A stretch of DNA of 64,000 bases from Waterburya sp. (GCA_965217895.1 CBDCJV010000002.1:2592001-2656000), one strand, 5' to 3'. Positions 1 through 12,400 are shown, counted from the first letter of the stretch. Translations and numbers: made by a program. Notes: a model not told the origin generated them from the letters alone.

Positions 1-1954
1 AAATTATCGCATCTACAAAGATTATCCACTGAAAGAAGAAAATGCTCTAGCTGACGGCGTACCTATCTTAGAAGTGTGGCCCCATTTCCAAGCTGAAGGT
101 TGGCAAGAGTATTACGGCTTCTACTACGATGCAGGTTTGGGAGAAGATACCTTTCACGTCAGTTTCCCCCAAGCCAAAGAACCTCATGTCTTTCAGGAAG
201 GTCAAGGCAATTATCAACTAACGCGACTAGACAAGTTTCCTTCTCATATTCAGTGTCAAAATCGCAACAGACAACCACTTGGTTTAATTCCTTTAAAAAC
301 ACCTCAAAAGATTTCATTGGCTGATAATTGGCGAGTTGGGGTAGACTTCGGTACTTCTTTCACCAATATCTATGTCAATAGAAGAGATAACGTCGAACCT
401 TTATCTCTTAAGAGTTTACATTTAAAGGTAACGGAAGCAGATATCGAAACTCGTATTCCTGTACTTTTTGAATACTTCGTCCCAGAAAAATTTATTCCTC
501 TTGATAAACCTTTACCTTTTTCCAGTGTTCTCACTACTAGAGGTAAAACTAACAGTCCCGAAGGAAGAGAACGGGCTTTATTTGATGGTCGGATATATAA
601 TCCAGACCTTAATTTTCAACCAGATAAAAACTGGATCGAAACCGATCTCAAATGGGATAATTTTGTTCCCAATCGACTGTTTTTAGAACATTTAGCACTG
701 CACGTTTCCGCCCTGGCTGCTAGCGAAGGAATCACAGAGATTCAATGGTCTTTATCTTATCCTTCCGCTTTTTCCAGGGGAGATCACACTAGATATATGA
801 GCACTTGGCGCGAATTAACTGAAAAACTGCAAGAAAAAACTGGCATTATTCAAAGTTGTCCAGAACAAAAGAATTTAGAGTGTTTTCGTACTGAAAGTCT
901 AGCAGTTGCTCAATACTTTTCTGACCAGGAAGGATACGATTTAATTAATAGTGTTTGTATCGATATTGGTGGCGGGACATCAGACATCTCAATATGGGAA
1001 AATAATCAATTAGTTCATCAATGTTCGGTTAGATTAGCAGGTCGTCAGTTATTTTCGCAATTTATAGAATTAAATCCCGACTTTATACGTAACAGTTTAA
1101 AACTCAAACACAGTGGTTACGAACGTTTAAAAAAAGACAAGCTATATGCCAAGTTAGATGTTTTACTCCGTAACAATGGAGAAACATGGCTAAAGGAAAT
1201 AGTTAAAACTATCGATAAAGATGAAAAATCTCAAGGATTGATTCGCTTAATTGCCTTGGGAACGGCTGGACTATACTATTACATCGGTATTTTATTAGGT
1301 GCATTGTATTCGGAAGAAAAATATACTACAGATGAAATTACTCCTGTTTATGTTGGTGGTAATGCTTCTCGATTCTTAAATTGGCTAGATATCGGAGGCA
1401 AGTTTGACAAACATTCTCAAGTCAATGAATTATTTAGCCATATGTTAAGTAAGGGTTCTGGCTTTAAAGATACTGAAGAAGTCACTCGTTTAAGTCAAAA
1501 GCCAAAAGATGAGGTAGCCTGTGGATTGGTTCTTACTGATACCAAGCTCAAAGGCTTAAATAAAAAACAAAAAGATCCTTTAATTGCAGGAGAAAATTGT
1601 GTAATTAATGGAAAAGAAATTTCTTACGAAAATCGCCTAGAATTTGAGGATAGAATTGAAAGTTTTGAAATTCCTGAATTGCATCAGCTATTTGCTTTTG
1701 TTGATGAGTTTAATTCAGCTATTAAGGAATTAGAACTAGAAGGAATTAAACCAATGTCTCAATTTCAAAGAGGTAAAGGCTTAGAACCTAAATATAAAGA
1801 CAAACTCTACAGTAGTACCAAAAGAGAACTAAAGAATATACTACTCAAAGAATTTGGACAAGGTGATTCTGAAAATATTCGTCCTGATGCTCCTTTTATT
1901 TTAGGATTGAAAGCTTTGTTACTTGCCTTGGGTAGAGAATGGGCAGAGCATTAG
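1..1954 (+). CDS. Divergent actin/Hsp70-superfamily (ASKHA) ATPase, 5'-partial
   Basis: Phosphate-1 motif VGVDFGTSFT, connect motif ESLA, phosphate-2 motif IDIGGGTSD, adenosine motif VGGNAS. The frame is open from base 2, so the true start lies upstream of the window (the track's GTG at 74 is internal). Confidence 0.75.
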   Translation, partial: NYRIYKDYPLKEENALADGVPILEVWPHFQAEGWQEYYGFYYDAGLGEDTFHVSFPQAKEPHVFQEGQGNYQLTRLDKFPSHIQCQNRNRQPLGLIPLKTPQKISLADNWRVGVDFGTSFTNIYVNRRDNVEPLSLKSLHLKVTEADIETRIPVLFEYFVPEKFIPLDKPLPFSSVLTTRGKTNSPEGRERALFDGRIYNPDLNFQPDKNWIETDLKWDNFVPNRLFLEHLALHVSALAASEGITEIQWSLSYPSAFSRGDHTRYMSTWRELTEKLQEKTGIIQSCPEQKNLECFRTESLAVAQYFSDQEGYDLINSVCIDIGGGTSDISIWENNQLVHQCSVRLAGRQLFSQFIELNPDFIRNSLKLKHSGYERLKKDKLYAKLDVLLRNNGETWLKEIVKTIDKDEKSQGLIRLIALGTAGLYYYIGILLGALYSEEKYTTDEITPVYVGGNASRFLNWLDIGGKFDKHSQVNELFSHMLSKGSGFKDTEEVTRLSQKPKDEVACGLVLTDTKLKGLNKKQKDPLIAGENCVINGKEISYENRLEFEDRIESFEIPELHQLFAFVDEFNSAIKELELEGIKPMSQFQRGKGLEPKYKDKLYSSTKRELKNILLKEFGQGDSENIRPDAPFILGLKALLLALGREWAEH

Positions 1955-2055
1955 TAGTAATTAATTATATTTGGCTTAAAGAGTTATGTAAATAAATCAA
2001 TTTTTTTGAAATAACTCTTTGAACATTATTTTTTTGAAATAAATAAATTAATCCT

Positions 2056-2964
2056 ATGGCTTCTTTTGATAATGTACAAGTACATAACTGTCCTGCTTGT
2101 GGAACTAAATATAAGGCTCAACGGGATGATTATATTTGTTGTGAATGTAAGTATCCTGTTAATTCAACAGCAGATTCAAAAGTTATTGATTGGTCGAAAA
2201 AAACTATTCAACAAATACAAGAACAAAATCAAATAAATCAAAAATTAACAGAAGACTTAGACAATCAAAATAAGAAAGAAAGTAATAACTTTAACATTTT
2301 TCAACAAACTATAGGCAGAATATCTCAACCTATAAGTAATTTGGCTCAGGAAATCAATAGTTTAACTCAAGAAATTAAAACCTTAACACAACAACAATAT
2401 AATTCAAATCTCAAGCAAAATAATAATTCTAAAATAGAAGGAAATTTAGAAGCATCACAACAAAATGATAATTCAGATATCGACGATTCTAAAGACTGTC
2501 TAGAAAAAAATAAAAGTGATAATTCGCATTCAGAAAATAATATAGACAATGATTCATTACCAGAAGCATCAAATGATAATAATGCTCTAAATAATATTCC
2601 TCAATTTTTAAGAGATTATAATCATGACAAAAATTTACTACTTGGCAAAGCGATCGCGACAGTTTCAGAAACAGCAGAAAGTATAAGTAATCGTCGCGAT
2701 GCAAGAGATATTCCAGTCCAGTTAGAAGTAAAAGCATCGAGGGGAAGCTATTGGATTATTAATGAAGAAGGTATTAATTATTTAGTTCCTACAATCGATA
2801 TTAAATTTAACGAGTTTAACCTTGACACACTTCAAGCCTTATTTGAATACGATAATTCTTGCAACAACTCTTATGAGTTTCAACTAATTAAACCAGCTAA
2901 AGTATCTCAAATATCATCAAAAACATGGCAAATTGAGAAAAAAGGCAAGCTATATTTTTATTAA
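2056..2964 (+). CDS. Hypothetical protein: N-terminal Zn ribbon, coiled coil, one copy of an unnamed ~118-aa C-terminal domain
   Basis: CPAC...CCEC motif, Q/N/E-rich heptads, C-terminal GxYW/YLVP/LIKPAKV/WxxEKKG domain shared with the next ORF. Confidence 0.8.
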   Translation: MASFDNVQVHNCPACGTKYKAQRDDYICCECKYPVNSTADSKVIDWSKKTIQQIQEQNQINQKLTEDLDNQNKKESNNFNIFQQTIGRISQPISNLAQEINSLTQEIKTLTQQQYNSNLKQNNNSKIEGNLEASQQNDNSDIDDSKDCLEKNKSDNSHSENNIDNDSLPEASNDNNALNNIPQFLRDYNHDKNLLLGKAIATVSETAESISNRRDARDIPVQLEVKASRGSYWIINEEGINYLVPTIDIKFNEFNLDTLQALFEYDNSCNNSYEFQLIKPAKVSQISSKTWQIEKKGKLYFY

Positions 2965-3020
2965 AGACTAAGAATTAAGCATAATTTAATCAATAATTTG
3001 AAAACAATTAACGAAATCTC

Positions 3021-4802
3021 ATGGCTACAAGTGATAAAAACACAGTTGTCACTCAAGGATTTGTCGATAAACTAATTGACAAAATAGGTAAAATCCTAAA
3101 AGAACAACATACTCTTGTTGAACGAGATGAACAACAAGCAGAATCAATAGAATTATTATTAGAAAAAGTTAGTTCTATTGAAAAAAACTTTGAGGAATTA
3201 ACTAAATCTTTAGCTAAAGGTAGCTATCCGCTGAAGTTAGCGCGATCTATAAAAGTAACACCATCTTCCATAAAACCTCATATCTTACCTGTCGATCTGA
3301 CTAAAGCTCAATTGATTGCCACCTATAACGAATTAGTAGCCGTGTTATCTGGTTATATTATCCCCGTTACCCTTACGCCAGAAAGTTATCGAGGTTCAAA
3401 TTCAGATGGAATAATTCTAGAAACAACTATCAAAGGAAATTATTGGGCGATCGCAACTCTAGAAAACAAACAGCATAAATATTGGCTTGTACCTAATAAT
3501 AATATCAGTTTTAATATTCACAAATTAAAAACAGTTGAAAATTTATTCCAGCTACAAGGAGATTATAATTCATCCGAATGCGAGTTTATCTTACAAGAAC
3601 CCGCAATTCTTTCTTTATTGCCGAATAACAAACAATGGAAGCTACTTCAGCCTGGTATTCTATTTTTTGGTAGCATAAAATCTGCATCACCTCAATTAAA
3701 ACAGCCTGAAAATGTAGTTGACGATAAGCAATCTAAAATTAATCAACAGATTTTGTCTAGCTTGACAGCATTTCAAACAAAAGTAAAGCTACTAGATAAT
3801 AAAATAACGCAGTTTGAAATTCAATCGGAAATATCGGAAAAAGTTTATCAACGAGATAAACAAGATTGGCTTACAGAAAAAAAAATTCTCAATGAACAAA
3901 TACAAAAAACTGATGTCTTACAATCTCAGCTAAATAACTTGATTAATCAAAGCGATCATACTGAAAATTTCAACTCAGACAATAGTGTTCAACAGTTTAC
4001 CGAATTATACAATCAACATAAAAATTCATTTAACGAATTTGTAATAGCTACAGTTATAGAGACACAAGAAAGTATGGAAAATCGTTTAGCAGGTCGTTCT
4101 GAAACAGTTTTTCTTTCAAGTATAAGTAAAGGTAACTATTGGATAGTAGAAGAAAACAACAATTCTTATTTAGTTCCTCATGCAAAAATTAGCATCAATG
4201 AACACAATAAACGATATACTATTGAAAATCTTTTTGAGTGTAATGAATCAAGCTCAGGTGATTATAGTTTTCAATTAATTCAGCCAGCAAAGGTTTTAAA
4301 ACTCAATTCGGAATTATGGCAACTTGAGAGAAAAGGCAAAATAGAGTTCATATCAGATAATCACAACAAAATAGACAATACAGAGATTAAAGATAGTCAG
4401 GATACAAAAATAGATTTAAAAACTAAAATATCTCGATTTAGACAAGACTATACTCAAGACATTAAGCTAATCTCTGATCTGATCGTGGCTAAAGTTACAA
4501 TTAGTGTAGAAACTCTATTACAACTTGTAATCTATAAACCCGATCTAATTAAATTAGAAAATAATGCTGATGGTAAGTATTGGATTATTGATTACTTAGG
4601 TGTTTATTGCTTGATACCAAGCGAAATACATCAGATAACTAACGCTACAGAAAAATCCTTAAACGATGCCAAAATCTTATTCGATCTAGTTGGATACTAT
4701 CCTCAATACTCTAGCTATCATTTAATTAAACCTGCAATAGTAACCAAGCTCTCTACGAATCAATGGAAATTGGAAGAAAAAGGTAAATTTAATTTTTCGT
4801 AG
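3021..4802 (+). CDS. Hypothetical coiled-coil protein with three copies of the same ~118-aa domain
   Basis: Repeats at about 3312-3668, 3996-4349 and 4437-4799 share Y(N/T)...GxYW...(Y/W/C)L(V/I)P...LF...PA...W...G motifs. Confidence 0.8.
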   Translation: MATSDKNTVVTQGFVDKLIDKIGKILKEQHTLVERDEQQAESIELLLEKVSSIEKNFEELTKSLAKGSYPLKLARSIKVTPSSIKPHILPVDLTKAQLIATYNELVAVLSGYIIPVTLTPESYRGSNSDGIILETTIKGNYWAIATLENKQHKYWLVPNNNISFNIHKLKTVENLFQLQGDYNSSECEFILQEPAILSLLPNNKQWKLLQPGILFFGSIKSASPQLKQPENVVDDKQSKINQQILSSLTAFQTKVKLLDNKITQFEIQSEISEKVYQRDKQDWLTEKKILNEQIQKTDVLQSQLNNLINQSDHTENFNSDNSVQQFTELYNQHKNSFNEFVIATVIETQESMENRLAGRSETVFLSSISKGNYWIVEENNNSYLVPHAKISINEHNKRYTIENLFECNESSSGDYSFQLIQPAKVLKLNSELWQLERKGKIEFISDNHNKIDNTEIKDSQDTKIDLKTKISRFRQDYTQDIKLISDLIVAKVTISVETLLQLVIYKPDLIKLENNADGKYWIIDYLGVYCLIPSEIHQITNATEKSLNDAKILFDLVGYYPQYSSYHLIKPAIVTKLSTNQWKLEEKGKFNFS

Positions 4803-5720: not shown

Positions 5721-6248
5721 TTATTTAGATAAGGCGATCGCCTGTGCTATCTTATCAAACATATTTGTTACGTCCTGTCCTGTCTTTGCCGAAGTTAGAT
5801 AGGCAGCAATTACTTGTTCACAATCAAAAGAGCTATATGCTTGGCTTAGTTTGTCTAGCTTTTCTTGAGCGACTAAATCAGCCTTGTTTAAACTTATTGC
5901 TATAATGGTTTGAGGATTTACCTCGGAAAAAAGGTTAATATGATTATTTAAATTATTGAGGGTATCTGAGCGAGTCAAATCTCCCACAATAATTGCGGCA
6001 CTTGCACCTTTAAGATAGCTGGGGGTAATTGACTTGAACTTAGTATTACCTTCTAAATCCCAGACCAAAAGATTAATTTGATCGATCTGTGAGTCAGTTT
6101 TGATATTTACTGATTTGCGAGATACCTTAACTCCAACCGTAGACAAATATTGATCGCTAAACTTATCTTCAACAAAGCGTCGAATTAAGCTGGTTTTACC
6201 AACATTAAAATCTCCTATTAAACAAATTTTCTTGGTAATTACTGACAT
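5721..6248 (-). CDS. Ras-superfamily (Rab-like) small GTPase
   Basis: G1 GDFNVGKT, G2 STVG, G3 WDLEG, G4 NKAD, G5 SAK; stand-alone 175 aa. Confidence 0.9.
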   Translation of the reverse strand: MSVITKKICLIGDFNVGKTSLIRRFVEDKFSDQYLSTVGVKVSRKSVNIKTDSQIDQINLLVWDLEGNTKFKSITPSYLKGASAAIIVGDLTRSDTLNNLNNHINLFSEVNPQTIIAISLNKADLVAQEKLDKLSQAYSSFDCEQVIAAYLTSAKTGQDVTNMFDKIAQAIALSK

Positions 6249-6251
6249 TAG

Positions 6252-8585
6252 TTAGTTTTTCTTGATATTGCTCGTAGGAATAAATGGTTCAAAGCTTACA
6301 TAACGATCTAACCACGCTGCTTGGTTGTTTGTATTTTGGGAAACATCTAATTTTGTGCAACGAGCCACAAGCTTAGTTGAATCAACTCCTTTGGCAACTA
6401 AGGCTGCCTGGACATTTTGACAACGCTCTTGGTTTAATTTTTGGTTAATTTTGTCTGTACCTTTTCCATCATTATGAGCTATTAATTTGAGATTTAGTTG
6501 GGGATATTGCTCTAAAAACTGGACTACAGAGTCAAGCTTGGCAGAAGTATCGGTAAATTCTAGCCGATTAGATCCTGAATTGAAGTAAATACGTTGTTTT
6601 ACCTTTGGTAACTGCGTATTTACGTTGAGAATTATTTTGGCAATTCCTGGTACTTGCTCGAACAGCTTAAGCATAAATTCTTGCTTTGATAAACTGCTTA
6701 CAGTTCCTTCTATAGTTAAAGTTTTGGTAGGAGATTCATAATTGGTTTTAATCAAGTTATTTGGCTGTTGATTAAATAAGCGAGTCAACCTTTGAACTTC
6801 ACCAGCAACCACATCAGGACTGGGAGAAATCTGAATAGCGATAATTTGGTTATCGAACTGGAGATTATTTTGACTGGCAATTTTTTGTGTAATTGCCCCT
6901 GCCTGATTTTTGAGGTATTCACTCGGAACTCTGCCACTAATAGTTAGTGTTCGATGATTTACATAGGGTTCTAAGCGATAAATAGATAGTTCTGGTGCAG
7001 CATCTAGTTTTGCTGCTGTTATTTGTTCAATATTGTGAGCTACATTGCCACGGTAGCTAATAATTCCCCAAGGAATAAGAACTAAACCCAGAAGAAAGGC
7101 TATTAGCCACAACAACGTCGACGGAGAAGACTTAAGTTTTGACTGCTGAGGATCTTGTTCGTAAATTAGCTTTCCTAATGCGGCTCTAATTTGTGGAGGA
7201 TTAGTTGTCATGTCTCCCTGATAATTAGCGATCGCCTTTCCATGCTTGAGGACAATTTCCCCTAAAACTCGGCGAATTCTGACTCGAAATTCTTTTGTCG
7301 GTTCTCCCTTAACCACTACGGCTAAATAACAATAGCCAGCTACTTCAATGGGAATCTGCCAGTCACCATAATCAATTGCGTCTAATTCTGAGCCAGAGGT
7401 AATACATTCATTAGCAAAACTACGAATTGCCGTTAACATTCCTGCAATCATGTCCGAATCTAAATGCCGATCTGCTTCCCTTTTAATCTCCTCAATCACA
7501 ATTCCCGAATCTTTAGCAATCAAAAATACGGCTTGAACATAATAGCCAATGGACTCTCGAAAAATTAGTTCGGCTTCAGAAACTCCCTGGATTTTTGCTT
7601 TTACCTTGCGCTTAATTCCCTCTGGGCTTAGGGTATTCTCCACCTTTCTATTGATATCCTGCACCACCTCCACCATATATTTAGAAATAGTGCTGCCAAT
7701 GACGGGGTAGAGTGCATCTACCATGGCATCTTTTTCAAGCTCAATCTGAGTTTTAATTGCCTTGCCCATTTCTGAACCTAAAGCTTCGGAGATTGCATCT
7801 TGGTCTAAACGAATTTGCTCTTTAATACACAGAGCCAATTCTGGAGCGATCGCCTTAGCAATCTCTTCAGGAGTCAGATTAATACCTTCGCTGATGGCAT
7901 GGGGCAAAATTTTAGCGATCGCGGCTGCCATTTTAGGCGAGTCTTCGAGCGATCGCTGTTCGATTATCCGATCTAGTACAGGTGATACTGTTTTTATAAT
8001 TGTCTCTTGAGAATCATCTATTTTATATTTCAGTAGCTCTACCATTAAAGGAATCAGGGCATTTACTGAATCAACAAGATCTAACTCTTGAGCAGAATCT
8101 GCTTGTGTCTGTAGCTCACTGCTATCTTTAGCGACAGACTCGATGGCTTCATCAAAAGTTACTTCCCAAGATGATGAGCGATCTGGTTCTGAGTCAGATG
8201 CTGAATGCTGTTGAGGCTTTACAGTTTGTCGGAGAAATGCTTGATACTCAACGGCTTTTTCGAGAGTGAGATTTTCTATTTCGCTTTCTACATCTATTTC
8301 TAAATCGGCATCTTCAGTATGTTGAAAGCTTGGGCGATCGGCATTAGAGTTTACCTGTTCTGATTTTGGTTTCTCAAAAGTAGAGTCGAAAGCCTTTTCT
8401 TGATAATATGACGGTTGCTTGCTATCTGTATCTCCTACCTCTGCCGTTTCTGCTTGGGATACGCCATTTGCTGATGACTTTTCATCTAATAAAAGATTAA
8501 GTAAATTGTCAATCGGCTCAAGATCTGGTTTTGTTGATTGAGAATTATTATCTTGAGGAGGTAAATTTTCAGAAAAAGAATTCAT
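6252..8585 (-). CDS. Membrane protein: acidic N-terminus, helical repeats, longin/roadblock-like domain, TM, BON-like and OmpA_C-like domains
   Basis: VFLIAKDSG...DMIAGMLTAIRSF segment, TM LLWLIAFLLGLVLIPWGII, LTISGRVPS (BON), IYFNSGS...HNDGKG...NQKLNQER (OmpA_C). The stop is 3 nt from the GTPase start. Confidence 0.8.
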   Translation of the reverse strand: MNSFSENLPPQDNNSQSTKPDLEPIDNLLNLLLDEKSSANGVSQAETAEVGDTDSKQPSYYQEKAFDSTFEKPKSEQVNSNADRPSFQHTEDADLEIDVESEIENLTLEKAVEYQAFLRQTVKPQQHSASDSEPDRSSSWEVTFDEAIESVAKDSSELQTQADSAQELDLVDSVNALIPLMVELLKYKIDDSQETIIKTVSPVLDRIIEQRSLEDSPKMAAAIAKILPHAISEGINLTPEEIAKAIAPELALCIKEQIRLDQDAISEALGSEMGKAIKTQIELEKDAMVDALYPVIGSTISKYMVEVVQDINRKVENTLSPEGIKRKVKAKIQGVSEAELIFRESIGYYVQAVFLIAKDSGIVIEEIKREADRHLDSDMIAGMLTAIRSFANECITSGSELDAIDYGDWQIPIEVAGYCYLAVVVKGEPTKEFRVRIRRVLGEIVLKHGKAIANYQGDMTTNPPQIRAALGKLIYEQDPQQSKLKSSPSTLLWLIAFLLGLVLIPWGIISYRGNVAHNIEQITAAKLDAAPELSIYRLEPYVNHRTLTISGRVPSEYLKNQAGAITQKIASQNNLQFDNQIIAIQISPSPDVVAGEVQRLTRLFNQQPNNLIKTNYESPTKTLTIEGTVSSLSKQEFMLKLFEQVPGIAKIILNVNTQLPKVKQRIYFNSGSNRLEFTDTSAKLDSVVQFLEQYPQLNLKLIAHNDGKGTDKINQKLNQERCQNVQAALVAKGVDSTKLVARCTKLDVSQNTNNQAAWLDRYVSFEPFIPTSNIKKN

Positions 8586-8635
8586 AAGCAATTTTACAAT
8601 ATCTGAAGCTTAAAACAGTTAGAGCAGTTTTCTTT

Positions 8636-8678
8636 GACTACTAACGACTAACTACTAACTACCAACTACCAACTACTA
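8636..8678. repeat. Short tandem heptamer repeats (ACTACTA/ACTACCA type, STRR-like)
   Basis: gactactaacgactaactactaactaccaactaccaactacta read directly. Confidence 0.7.
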
Positions 8679-8684
8679 AGATTG

Positions 8685-9548
8685 CTATATAGTCTTTGAG
8701 GTGATCTCGCTGATTTCTAGAGAATCGCTTCTTTTTGCTATGGCCTGTTCTAGGTTTTGCTCTGCCTGCTGAAGAATGCTGCGACTATCTATTACGTCTG
8801 TGGGATCGACAACTACTCCTCCTGCATTCATTTTAAGCGATAATGACGTTCCATCTGCTTTTTGTAAAGGAGTTTGCGTAATTTTCTCTCGTAAATATGC
8901 TCCATATTCTGTTATCTCTGTTCCTCTCAAGCCCAAAATCAAGCTAATAAAACGTTTGCGGTCTGTAGTGCCTAGAAAACTATCAGGAATTACAGCATTG
9001 ACAAACCGATTGGCGATCGCTTTATAAACTGCATTTTCGCTGCCTACATCGGCAAAATTACGCTGAGATTTAGCTGGTTCAACCGTAAATAAGATTACGG
9101 TGAGTGATGAATAGCGCGGATTATTAGGTTGATTTTTCATTTGCTGGAGCAAATGTTCTGTTAGCTGCACTGTGGCATCTTTGGTTAACAAACCCGTTAC
9201 CGTATCAGCTAAATTAAAAGTCTGAAGTAGCTCTTGAGTCGCTTCTTGTTTAGCTAGATCTTGCTGCTGTTGTTGGGTGTTTGTTTTGCTTTGCATTTTT
9301 AGCTGGGTTTGTAGCTCGGCAATTTGCTTTTTTTGTCGCGAATTCTGCCAACCCCGCTTAAAAATTGTGGGAGTTGATAATAGCAAGCTGATTATGATTC
9401 CTAACCCTAAGGTAAGAAGTAAAATAATAGCTAAAGACTCTTTAAATTGCCAGACACCAAAACTAATGGTTACCACCGCAGCATTTTGAAAAGCAAAAAG
9501 CACGGCAACTACCGCCATGATCAAGCCGATAATTACTAGAAAAACCAT
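8685..9548 (-). CDS. LapA (DUF1049) domain fused to a degenerate GGDEF-fold domain
   Basis: Two N-terminal TMs with FAFQN motif and a coiled coil. The C-terminal part has DTVTGLL and SLKMNAGG...QAEQNL, but the GGDEF site reads TDRKRF. Confidence 0.7.
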   Translation of the reverse strand: MVFLVIIGLIMAVVAVLFAFQNAAVVTISFGVWQFKESLAIILLLTLGLGIIISLLLSTPTIFKRGWQNSRQKKQIAELQTQLKMQSKTNTQQQQQDLAKQEATQELLQTFNLADTVTGLLTKDATVQLTEHLLQQMKNQPNNPRYSSLTVILFTVEPAKSQRNFADVGSENAVYKAIANRFVNAVIPDSFLGTTDRKRFISLILGLRGTEITEYGAYLREKITQTPLQKADGTSLSLKMNAGGVVVDPTDVIDSRSILQQAEQNLEQAIAKRSDSLEISEITSKTI

Positions 9549-9800
9549 AGGTTTATATTTACTAAAAAACTAATTATATGAGTTATGTTATATTTCTTAT
9601 ATTATTGGCATAATCCCATGATTAGTTGAATTCAAAATTAAATGTAATCTAAGTCCAGATTGTTGATTTAAAGCACATCTTCGTAAATCTCTGACATTGT
9701 TAGGGTTAATTCCACTGAATCCAACTGCAATTTATTATCTTTTATTATGTCTATTTTAATTTTGTATAGTGATATTGTAGTAAGGTGATCGCCTTGATAA

Positions 9801-9956
9801 CTGACGTTACGCATTTATCGATACTGTGAAGACTGGGTAGTGGGGTAATTGGGATGTGGGGTGTTTAGGGTAGTTTGGCTTCACTACTTCACTATCTCCA
9901 CTACTCCTCCATACTCCTTATTCACTACTTCATGACCCCATGCTGCGTAATATCAG
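9801..9956. mobile_element. MITE family A, copy 2 (156 bp, inverted relative to copy 1)
   Basis: TIRs CTGACGTTACGCA / TGCGTAATATCAG, TAA duplication at 9798-9800 and 9957-9959. The reverse complement aligns with 5590-5720. Confidence 0.8.
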
Positions 9957-10056
9957 TAATAATAAGAGTCTGTTAAATTGATTAGCAGGTAAAATCGCTA
10001 ATAGCCCATAGAATAGAGATATAATTTAGAGGAAAGCTTTATCTAAACTTTGTCTT

Positions 10057-10419
10057 ATGAGCAACACCAATCCTGTAACTAATGCCTTTTTTTTTGGCAG
10101 AGCTTTAGCCGAAGTCTTTAGCGAAAAGATGGAAGAATCTTTTACCAACGCCATGAGCGATCTAGGCAAGTTTGATGCCGAACAAAGAGAAAATTTAAGA
10201 CAATTTATGGAGGAAGTTCAGTTAAGAGCCGAACAAGCAGCAGGTAGCACCTATTATCCAAATAGCACTACTACGACTACTAGTCGTCCCAACACTGCCT
10301 CTAACTCGATCAATATTGATATTAATACTACTAATTCAAGCGATCTACAGGCAATGCTCGATCAATTAAGAGCCGAAATTGCCACTTTGCGATCAGAGTT
10401 AAAAAAATATCGTGACTAA
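10057..10419 (+). CDS. Conserved cyanobacterial protein (Sll1769-like)
   Basis: [15 protein letters not shown]...[15 protein letters not shown] motif; lies upstream of an ABC1 kinase and PP2C as in Synechocystis sll1769-1771. Confidence 0.75.
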
Positions 10420-10609
10420 TTAAATTGCGATCGACTAAATTTTCTATTCTGGTAAGTAGCTTGACGCTTTGGTTTTAATCGATCGGATTCTCAAGCAAAT
10501 AGTAAAGTACTTTTGTACTTACGCTGTTTTTTTGGCGATAAGTCGCTACTATTTAGATTAGTTAATCTTATTTAATCAAACATCACAGTTAAACTTCTGT
10601 AAAAATTTA

Positions 10610-12400
10610 GTGTCTTCTGCTATTCCCAATCAAAAATCAATAGACGATCGGTCTAACCAGTCTGATTCAGCCAAAACCGTCAAAGAAGTTGGAGCAGCAG
10701 TCACTCATAGTCAAGAAGCAGGAGTGATGGTAGCTGCTAAGTCCTACCGTTGGAATCGTGCCAAATATTCACGCAATCGTCGGCGACTAGATATCTGGCG
10801 TTTTGTGCTGACGTTTCTATTTAGAAATTGGTGGGACAAGCGTAAGTGGGCTTATCCAGGGGGAATAACTCCAGAGAAACAGGCGTTGAGACGGAGAGAG
10901 CAAGCTGTTTGGATTCGAGAAAACTTTCTAGAGTTGGGACCTACCTTTATCAAAGTTGGTCAACTATTCTCTACCCGTGGGGATTTGTTTCCCATAGAGT
11001 ATGTTGAAGAGCTTTCTAAGCTGCAAGATCGAGTTCCTGCCTTTCCCTACGAGCAGGTTGAAGAGACTATTAAATCAGATTTTGGCAAGTCAATTAATCA
11101 GTTATTCTCTAGTTTTGAGCCTACTCCCTTGGCAGCAGCAAGTTTAGGGCAGGTACATAAAGCTAAACTTCACAGTGGCGAAGAGGTAGTAGTTAAGGTT
11201 CAACGACCAGGTTTAAAGCAGCTATTTACCGTAGATTTAGTAATTCTGCGCCAAATTGCTCGTTATTTTCAAAATCACCGTGAATGGGGTAATAACCGAG
11301 ATTGGCTGGGTATTTACGACGAATGCTGTCGCATTTTGTGGGAAGAAACTGATTACCTTCATGAAGGACGGAATGCAGATACCTTTCGCCGTAATTTTCA
11401 GAAAGAGAATTGGGTGCGTGTTCCTCGTGTCTACTGGAAATACGCTTCTCCCAAGGTGTTAACCTTGGAATATATGCCAGGAATTAAGATCAGCCACTAC
11501 GAAGCAATTGAAGCTGCTGGTTTAGATCGCAAATTATTAGCCAGATTAGGAGCGAAGGCATATCTTCAGCAAATTTTGAATGGAGGGTTTTTTCATGCCG
11601 ATCCTCACCCAGGTAATATTGCTGTAGCGACAGACGGGTCGCTGATCTTCTATGATTTTGGCATGATGGGACAAATTGAAAGTAACATCCGCGAAGGTTT
11701 GATGGATACTTTAGTCGGTATTGCCCAAAAAAATAGCGAAAAGGTGGTCAACTCCCTAATTAACCTGGGAGCTTTAGTCCCTACAGGAGATATGACTTCG
11801 GTAAGGCGTTCAATTCAGTTTATGCTAGACAATTTTATGGACAAACCTTTTGAGGAACAGTCCGTAGATGCGATTAGCGAAGATCTATATGACATAGCCT
11901 ATGGTCAACCATTCCGTTTTCCGGCAACGTTTACCTTTGTGATGCGGGCTTTTTCTACTTTAGAAGGAGTGGGCAAAGGTTTAGACCCTGAATTTAATTT
12001 TATGGAAGTAGCTCAACCTTATGCAATGAAGCTTATGACTAATACAAGTTCTAATGGCAGTACTATTTTTGATGAGTTAGGTAGACAAGCAGCACAGGTA
12101 GGAACAACTGCCCTGGGGCTGCCTAGACGAATCGACGATACAATAGATAAATTAGAAAGAGGAGATTTACGGGTTCGTGTTCGTTCAATTGAATCAGAGC
12201 GAGTTATACGCCGATTGAGTGCAATTCAGCTTGGTACGAACTATACTATGTTGTTTAGTGCTTTACTTATTTGTGCTACTCTCCTTTTGGTTGGTGGATA
12301 CGAGACAGTAGCAGCGATCGCTGCTATCATTGCTTTAGTCCCTGGTTGGGCATTATTGCGGTTGCTAAGGCGCCTCGATCGCATCGATCGTATGTTCTAA
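10610..12400 (+). CDS. ABC1/AarF/UbiB atypical protein kinase (Sll1770-like)
   Basis: LGPTFIKVGQ, AAASLGQVH, VKVQRP, FFHADPHPGN and YDFGMMG motifs; C-terminal TMs; GTG start. Confidence 0.92.
   Translation: MSSAIPNQKSIDDRSNQSDSAKTVKEVGAAVTHSQEAGVMVAAKSYRWNRAKYSRNRRRLDIWRFVLTFLFRNWWDKRKWAYPGGITPEKQALRRREQAVWIRENFLELGPTFIKVGQLFSTRGDLFPIEYVEELSKLQDRVPAFPYEQVEETIKSDFGKSINQLFSSFEPTPLAAASLGQVHKAKLHSGEEVVVKVQRPGLKQLFTVDLVILRQIARYFQNHREWGNNRDWLGIYDECCRILWEETDYLHEGRNADTFRRNFQKENWVRVPRVYWKYASPKVLTLEYMPGIKISHYEAIEAAGLDRKLLARLGAKAYLQQILNGGFFHADPHPGNIAVATDGSLIFYDFGMMGQIESNIREGLMDTLVGIAQKNSEKVVNSLINLGALVPTGDMTSVRRSIQFMLDNFMDKPFEEQSVDAISEDLYDIAYGQPFRFPATFTFVMRAFSTLEGVGKGLDPEFNFMEVAQPYAMKLMTNTSSNGSTIFDELGRQAAQVGTTALGLPRRIDDTIDKLERGDLRVRVRSIESERVIRRLSAIQLGTNYTMLFSALLICATLLLVGGYETVAAIAAIIALVPGWALLRLLRRLDRIDRMF

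Follow-up and report, generated by a model that had tools for sequence, protein, structure and literature searches.

A tubulin-like protein, a giant actin/Hsp70-fold ATPase and REP-domain proteins form a cassette in Waterburya sp., an orthologue of Synechocystis sll0443-sll0449

We conclude that a 64,000-nucleotide stretch of the Waterburya sp. genome (GCA_965217895.1 CBDCJV010000002.1:2592001-2656000; this whole stretch is called the window) opens with the 3' end of a cassette in which a giant actin/Hsp70-fold ATPase is followed by two proteins built from an unnamed repeat domain of about 123 amino acids, labelled REP here. A tubulin-like gene, a gene for a small membrane protein and a gene for a vWA-motif lipoprotein lie upstream of the window. 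On the strength of sequence comparison, the cassette is the orthologue of sll0443-sll0449 of Synechocystis sp. PCC 6803, and thus a further member of a little-studied module. Homologous loci are given L-numbers and genomes of the comparison set G-numbers; L001 is this locus plus flank, and an L001 coordinate equals the window position plus 14000.

The cassette and its Synechocystis counterpart

Orthology with sll0443-sll0449 follows from the published primers and the published CRP (SYCRP1) site, which map to one homologous cassette, L141. All six sll0445-sll0447 primers of PMC9880817 map there, one of them by its first 17 bases: their positions fall within the genes for the tubulin and the ATPase and on either side of the gene after these. 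The same cassette has the CRP site placed by PMC2633013 371 bases ahead of sll0443. The L141 order is lipoprotein, membrane protein, tubulin, ATPase and three REP genes. The ATPase is 34% identical to that of L141 (Sll0446) over 1,091 columns (E 7e-174); identity is 35% for the tubulin, 28% for the membrane protein and 25% for the lipoprotein (the other BLASTP E values against L141 cassette genes are 4e-101, 7e-15 and 3e-23), and the three L141 genes 3' of the ATPase (Sll0447-9) carry REP with E values of 1e-16, 4e-9 and 2e-20. Genes and gene order are the same from the membrane protein to the REP proteins. Unlike in sll0443-sll0449, the lipoprotein gene is divergently transcribed here, and the REP proteins comprise a Zn-ribbon protein and a soluble three-copy protein, whereas Synechocystis has two transmembrane types and an N-REP type. 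Neither a CRP consensus site at up to 3 mismatches nor the published CRP 16-mer is found in the 300 bases scanned upstream of this cassette (L001:10400-10700).

The ATPase occupies positions 2 to 1954 on the plus strand as the 3' 650 codons (amino acids 431-1080) of a reading frame that is open at the window edge; the full protein has 1,080 amino acids, and its first ATG lies at L001:12712, 1,289 bases ahead of the window. As an earlier note made from the window's sequence had claimed, its ASKHA motifs are complete. The phosphate-1 motif GVDFGTSF (338-361; VDFGTSFT at 341-364), the connecting glutamate E728 in RTESL (893), the phosphate-2 motif DIGGGTSD (962-985) and the adenosine motif GGNAS (1355-1369) are all intact on the plus strand, and D545, G547, T548, E728, G753, G754, D758, G882 and G883 are invariant among 100 homologues. 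In the AlphaFold2 model (predicted local distance difference test score, pLDDT, 88.5; predicted template-modelling score 0.77), which also renders the N-terminal 530 amino acids with confidence, amino acids 537-945 adopt the actin/Hsp70 fold. The top Foldseek match is the nucleotide-binding domain of DnaK (E 1.5e-7; identities in the Foldseek rows are 9-14%), and the top VIA match is MreB (Z 16.6, root-mean-square deviation [rmsd] 3.5, 285 aligned), with ParM, BeeR and CorM close behind.

This nucleotide-binding fold and the intact motifs are common to the ATPase, Hsp70/DnaK, the MreB/FtsA/ParM/CorM group and SrfB (PF07520). Unlike Hsp70/DnaK, however, the modelled ATPase has no C-terminal substrate-binding beta-sandwich and lid, again in line with the earlier reading: past amino acid 945 there are only short strands and three helices, and ATP-state BiP and Sse1 extend the alignment by a few residues, to about 1054. 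Its 1,080 amino acids include an N-terminal extension of about 530, whereas filament actins measure about 330-420 in all. It falls below all Pfam and NCBIfam cut-offs (FtsA 25 bits against 31.8, MreB 20 bits against 27). The suggested SrfB-like affiliation finds no support in Pfam, where neither SrfB nor HSP70 matches at E<=1; the nearest named Atlas clusters include SrfB (0.88, 159 common features), which we treat as a lead only. Profiles of the ATPase, lipoprotein and tubulin retrieved no solved relative by sequence.

Upstream, the tubulin-like gene (500 amino acids; L001:11089-12591, plus strand) matches Pfam Tubulin_2 at 29 bits, over the cut-off of 27. Its GTP-binding loop GSIFGGTGASG is nearly all invariant among 20 sequences, with GGTGASG and the N-terminal GxGG fully so, and its length is 484-555 amino acids in complete loci. 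It follows the gene for a 156-amino-acid membrane protein with three hydrophobic segments (L001:10629-11099, plus strand). The divergent lipoprotein gene (L001:9099-10493, minus strand) is assigned to vWA by motif only: DxSxS (D64, S66, S68) and T163-D164 are conserved in 18 sequences, and the protein has no Pfam or PDB profile match. A tubulin-like gene and a vWA-motif gene are thus present upstream, as the earlier note had suggested, but a conserved GTPase gene is not part of the unit; P-loop GTPase, kinase and OmpA genes are not among the recurrent neighbours in 126 loci.

Linkage within the cassette is close to absolute. In 60 of 63 loci the gene immediately after that for the ATPase encodes REP, the tubulin gene is found in 68 of 71 (two of the misses, L047 and L051, are start-call artefacts), the membrane gene in 64 of 66 and the vWA lipoprotein gene in 42 of 54; these locus counts derive from the best 80 of 315 GTDB loci and include only those with enough flank. 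Among 301 genomes of the phylum (one draw), 32 carry REP and 30 the ATPase; 28 carry both, four REP alone and two the ATPase alone. The window therefore does contain the 3' part of a multi-gene system in its own right, as proposed, and the possibility raised beside that proposal, an ordinary ATPase family with no conserved tie to the repeat proteins, agrees neither with the family scores nor with this linkage. The cassette is spread unevenly among cyanobacteria: it is carried by 15 of 60 genomes of the family and by all five genomes of one genus, and it occurs on five plasmid records. A further, distant relative of it comes from a different class (L143).

Nine distinct N-truncated second copies of the ATPase were also found (13 rows, from which two duplicates were removed along with two primary copies that are truncated). 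The full set of four motifs is retained in 96 of 100 full-length rows but in not one of these nine, three of which are fused behind REP. Broken ATPase genes exist as well: in T. erythraeum IMS101 the ATPase is split into 706 and 382 amino acids (L054:9968-13243), and in G020 it is down to a 178-amino-acid remnant beside retained REP genes (L039:10192-10728).

The REP domain and mosaic alleles

The two co-directional partner proteins do share a domain, and one of them does carry a Zn ribbon, as the earlier note had it. The first (2056-2964, plus strand) is a soluble protein of 302 amino acids with a CxxC-x12-CxxC Zn ribbon (2092-2151; amino acids 13-32), a predicted coiled coil, an N/D/S-rich linker and one REP (2590-2961; amino acids 179-302). 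The second (3021-4802, plus strand), of 593 amino acids, has three REP copies (3297-3671, 3981-4352 and 4422-4799; amino acids 93-217, 321-444 and 468-593) separated by predicted coiled-coil spacers. The single REP of the former is 32, 46 and 28% identical to the three copies of the latter, the middle one of which is of the type found in Zn-ribbon genes. The coiled coils of both proteins are predicted from sequence and from weak SMC/Rad50 matches; for the 302-amino-acid protein, matches to XopZ, LmuB, Rad50 and SMC were dropped as annotations because they cover the coiled region only and lie far under the cut-offs. Within this genome REP is confined to these two genes. Neither the main ATPase nor the tubulin, the vWA-motif protein or the membrane protein has a copy, and the second ATPase copies to which it is fused (L028, L073 and L140) are degenerate.

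REP is a real domain. Its model has a pLDDT of 90.9 and a mixed alpha/beta composition, and its profile matches 1,288 clusters at 50% identity (E<=1e-3); a word-index search retrieved three proteins only. Pfam gives nothing significant in 75 members, the PDB sequences give a best E of only 0.1, Foldseek gives no match in PDB or BFVD at E<=1e-3, VIA gives a best Z of 2.4 over 48,161 chains, and the Atlas neighbours are unnamed. Such blank searches are no proof of a new fold. In row 16 of the BFVD comparison, the REP model aligns with part of a 1,374-amino-acid crAss-like phage polyvalent protein (template-modelling score 0.48, rmsd 3.8, E 1.3), which is a lead only. A search of 50,697 phage records gave no match.

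Across 80 loci, 73 of the 201 REP proteins have a transmembrane segment, 52 carry a Zn ribbon and the other 76 lack both, and the type depends on the position behind the ATPase: slot 1 favors the Zn ribbon (43 of 66), slot 2 the transmembrane type (42 of 53) and slot 3 the soluble type (26 of 44). Pfam leaves 15 of 16 transmembrane-type proteins without a match and gives one a weak peptidoglycan-binding match. Among 18 scanned proteins with a long tail after REP, the tail is WD40 in nine, TPR in one, FGE-sulfatase in one and uninformative in seven.

The alleles of this locus are mosaic. Compared with four close genus relatives, the tubulin is 96-98% identical, the ATPase 81-82% and the Zn-ribbon protein 34-39%. 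The ATPase itself is divided: per window, amino acids 1-480 are 88-100% identical to these relatives and the rest 37-87%, and beyond amino acid 480 the protein is 77-98% identical to that of L042, a Xenococcaceae contig. Informative sites split accordingly, 86 for the genus against 1 for L042 in amino acids 1-480, and 89 for L042 against 14 for the genus in amino acids 481-1080. They place the switch at about amino acids 490-500, just before the actin-fold core (window about 180-210; the approximate left breakpoint is set at 179-209, plus strand). For the Zn-ribbon protein, too, L042 has the nearest counterpart (52%), and the swapped segment gives way to genus-like DNA at about 2740-2870, its right end, inside the Zn-ribbon gene. 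A single replacement from another lineage thus took in the ATPase's catalytic half together with most of the Zn-ribbon gene, the N-terminal half staying with the tubulin. A second allele-swapped segment coincides with the most variable patch of the core, amino acids 780-835 (window 1040-1200), which in G036 is 32-38% identical to genus relatives, with both flanks at 87-98%.

REP also moves from gene to gene. The middle REP of the three-REP protein is 92% (G019) or 78% (G008) identical to the Zn-ribbon REP of the same locus, and the outer two copies group by slot. Three types of Zn-ribbon REP can be told apart among nine close genomes, and amino acids 681-720 of the ATPase sort alike. This is the best of 28 windows (r 0.73), with a permutation p of 0.005 that ignores kinship and linkage, which weakens it as support for REP docking. 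In G030 the REP type was predicted correctly from the ATPase before its REP gene was examined. The helix at amino acids 689-710 (window 776-841, plus strand) is, from the model and this allele covariation, a candidate REP-docking surface.

A possible surface-behavior module and its alternatives

Our preferred reading, to which we assign a probability of roughly 45%, is that of a membrane-anchored tubulin-actin module in which REP docks to the ATPase core and which tunes pilus-dependent surface behavior (motility, adhesion, cell contact). The N-terminal half of the ATPase, about 530 amino acids, would pair with the tubulin-like protein, since both keep the genus background (94-97% and 96-98%) while the catalytic half was exchanged. 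REP may bind the catalytic half, possibly at helix 689-710, as a tag in the style of a J-domain. It would thereby bring the ATPase to whatever it is fused to, be it transmembrane proteins with variable periplasmic parts, the cytoplasmic Zn-ribbon protein, multi-REP scaffolds or WD40 and TPR modules. At the inner membrane, cycles of ATP and GTP would drive the complex together and apart again upon surface cues, and allele exchange would keep ATPase-REP pairs matched and change their specificity.

The link to pili is drawn by analogy from uncomplemented Synechocystis mutants and from the regulation of their unit; this genome has pilin genes. Insertion mutants of sll0445, sll0446 and sll0447 are all reported to be impaired in phototaxis and also altered in photosystem II (PSII) fluorescence (Xu et al., PMC9880817). 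The sll0443 unit is listed among the CRP-site units together with slr1667-8, slr2015-8 (pilA9-12) and slr0442 (pilX2) (PMC2633013), the latter being minor pilins that the motility pilus requires according to PMC13759059, whose excerpt does not mention sll044x. Four genes of the unit change 3.8-5.9-fold in the table for a lexA mutant (PMC4759255), and a comFB mutant shows deregulation of two (bioRxiv 2023.11.27.568819). The phototactic S. elongatus UTEX 3055 has two homologues in its set of unique genes, and these are absent from legacy strains (PMC9239245). The labels given to the proteins in the excerpts of PMC9880817 and related papers are only Tubulin_2, FtsA-domain and DivIC-domain. The system thus already has published mutant and regulation data through its orthologue, a point missing from the earlier note. 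The giant ATPase, REP and the allele exchange have no description in the literature searched, which did not cover subscription papers and in which only four listed papers name sll0443-0448 in their main text.

A number of observations weigh against this assignment of function. The cassette is patchy, being present in 11 of 38 other genomes of the genus and in 8 of 37 genomes of the family with the largest sample; it therefore does not belong to the core machinery of motility. It occurs in Microcystis and Crocosphaera, genera that are not known to be motile. Outside the genus, ATPase window 681-720 reaches an r of 0.25-0.28 and ranks 13 to 16 of 105; in six genus genomes a window at amino acid 181 scores slightly higher (0.74 against 0.68); and a mirror-tree comparison over all 1,081 pairs has no peak at 681-720. 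The covariation of helix 689-710 with REP is therefore a possible lead rather than a result. The remaining points come from PMC9880817, in which a text search found no complementation, and its mutants are insertions for which polar or secondary effects are possible. The pull-down with Sll0445-GFP lists neither Sll0446 nor Sll0447, and pilin Slr2018 appears in it with 8 peptide-spectrum matches, against 9 with the unrelated bait Slr0149. Co-elution of Sll0445 and Sll0446 scores only 0.59 (among 30 of 38 rows covered), in clusters of 45-55 members that are full of photosystem I, and neither protein is among the 14 partners of P74681, taken as Sll0447 by accession order (PMC9880817).

Two kinds of known system resemble the cassette, and we conclude that it is like either yet a member of neither. 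The FtsZl1 and FtsZl2 operons likewise place a divergent Tubulin_2 tubulin beside a vWA-motif lipoprotein and membrane proteins (PMC2875224). However, FtsZl1 has about 1,000 amino acids, with a long coiled coil and a helical C-terminal domain, whereas the tubulin here has 500; the FtsZl1 of T. erythraeum, Tery_1707 (1,090 amino acids, at 2.596 Mb), is distinct from its cassette tubulin (490 amino acids, at about 1.86 Mb); FtsZl2 is by description proteobacterial and without conserved neighbors; and the operon components listed in the excerpt of PMC2875224 include neither a giant actin-fold partner nor REP. In PMC9871819, Tubulin_2 proteins are only an outgroup in the excerpt. The ternary and GTPase-centered conflict systems of Kaur et al. 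2020 (PMC7159879) are alike in having an NTPase core, variable partners, inactive copies and a small coupling domain, but their DO-GTPase/GAP1 or MoxR-vWA-VMAP/iSTAND core is absent here and is met only as neighbors or fusions in L056, L061 and L091. According to the same source, GTPase-centered systems are nearly absent from cyanobacteria.

It is on balance unlikely, though a serious competitor, that the cassette is a regulated anti-invader system, in which an invader or damage to the envelope is sensed by REP proteins of the transmembrane and Zn-ribbon types, the tubulin-actin core serves as a nucleoside triphosphate threshold or a polymerizing effector, and the motility phenotype is a side effect. 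Its patchy, mobile and plasmid-borne occurrence would fit, as would the low GC content of the partner genes (29-33% against 39%), the allele mosaics, the swapping of REP between genes and the ties to iSTAND-MoxR-vWA (L056, L091), double-GTPase (L061) and STAND-WD40 genes (L052, L061, L062, L029). The WD40, TPR and FGE-sulfatase fusions of REP point the same way; WD40 and STAND genes, however, are abundant in these genomes in any case. The dead second ATPase copies resemble the inactive decoys of PMC7159879. Against this reading, ternary systems are described as capturing neighboring domains (PMC7159879). PADLOC 2.0 finds no match for six of seven proteins, including the ATPase, tubulin, vWA, membrane and 593-amino-acid proteins, and gives the 302-amino-acid protein only weak matches in its coiled region. 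There is no nuclease, TIR or pore-type effector in the 18 REP-tail proteins scanned, this copy does not lie in a defense island, all five genomes of one genus have the cassette, and the unit is regulated with surface-appendage genes. Should the machine sense when the cell touches others, the anti-invader and surface-behavior readings would become one.

We regard as clearly improbable a stronger version of our preferred reading, in which REP is a new fold and an allele-specific key to the ATPase, the catalytic half and the Zn-ribbon REP are swapped as a matched cassette, and the whole is a contact-sensing or kin-recognition machine that steers pilus-driven behavior. Still less probable is a structural cytoskeleton or membrane-remodeling scaffold (for cell shape, the division site or thylakoid-plasma-membrane contact), built of filaments anchored by transmembrane REP proteins and with no recognition role. 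The MreB-led fold matches, the invariant tubulin signatures and the ARC6-like IMS-domain genes beside three loci are consistent with it, as are the altered PSII fluorescence of the mutants (PMC9880817) and the membrane remodeling that Makarova and Koonin 2010 (PMC2875224) predicted for the related FtsZl1 operons. The ATPase is, however, not found in 271 of 301 genomes, copies are broken in L054 and L039, and a purely structural role would hardly account for decoy copies and the swapping of alleles. Finally, REP is very unlikely to be a homotypic coupling domain whose copies bind each other and touch the ATPase only via fusions. In this it would parallel the effector-associated domains (EADs) of PMC7159879, which it resembles in being small, non-enzymatic, multi-copy, N- or C-terminal and often most closely related to the copy in the next gene. 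In EAD systems, however, a core component invariably carries a copy, whereas REP sits on three degenerate second ATPases and on none of the main core proteins; none of the EADs listed in Pfam matches the 75 REP sequences; and REP without the ATPase is rare (4 of 32 genomes).

The literature searched has no worked-out case of a bacterial operon whose tubulin-like GTPase and actin-fold ATPase are coupled at the membrane, and the link to sll0443-sll0449 makes this module testable in the main cyanobacterial model. Three motility genes called hypothetical gain an architecture, namely a giant ATPase, a candidate interface that can be named and a putative docking domain without structural match. Recognition is the function that the allele swaps suggest; if true, it would tie cytoskeleton-like proteins to social behavior or immunity in cyanobacteria.

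Neighboring genes and variant loci

A 449-amino-acid coiled-coil/transmembrane protein of uncertain membership (L001:7667-9016, minus strand) sits behind the lipoprotein; genus relatives have one to four variable paralogues with a common N-terminal coil (L022, L026), and the cassette may have here one more slot that varies. The flanks of this copy hold a transaldolase-family gene and a gene that we take, from its sequence, to be CobW-like, and no defense island. Promoter and terminator scans gave signals at or below shuffle level, and a look-up for RNA listed no holder. On the opposite strand, beyond the transaldolase gene, positions 5721-9548 encode in a row a Ras/Roc-like small GTPase (175 amino acids), a 779-amino-acid BON/OmpA membrane protein and a LapA-domain/GGDEF-like protein. 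We rejected the Ras-like GTPase and OmpA genes (5721-8591) and the transaldolase gene as cassette members, because they recur only in close relatives. A similar small-GTPase gene is found close to the cassette in L035 and is missing there in most loci.

Elsewhere, an iSTAND-MoxR-vWA cassette has its fourth gene fused to a whole giant ATPase (L056:1-7132, L091:5063-13219); in L091 it sits between tubulin and ATPase, and in L056 the fused ATPase has an altered phosphate-2 motif and an intact copy beside it. Double-GTPase-like and large unknown genes lie directly downstream of the REP array in L061 (17575-23255) and L053, and STAND-WD40 genes lie inside or beside the cassette in L052, L061, L062 and L029. 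The ARC6-like IMS-domain genes adjoin it in the distant loci L081, L123 and L143, two of which also have beta-lactamase-like serine hydrolases. Directly downstream of the REP array are a Tn7-like transposon in L041 (10497-14011) and a DUF499 ATPase gene in L124 (4886-5880). Within a decayed REP array, L040 carries Hsp70, Zn-ribbon, TPR and DnaJ-like genes on the opposite strand (5799-12276), and a dynamin-like gene lies inside the REP arrays of L032 (6170-8671) and L034 (9027-11531).

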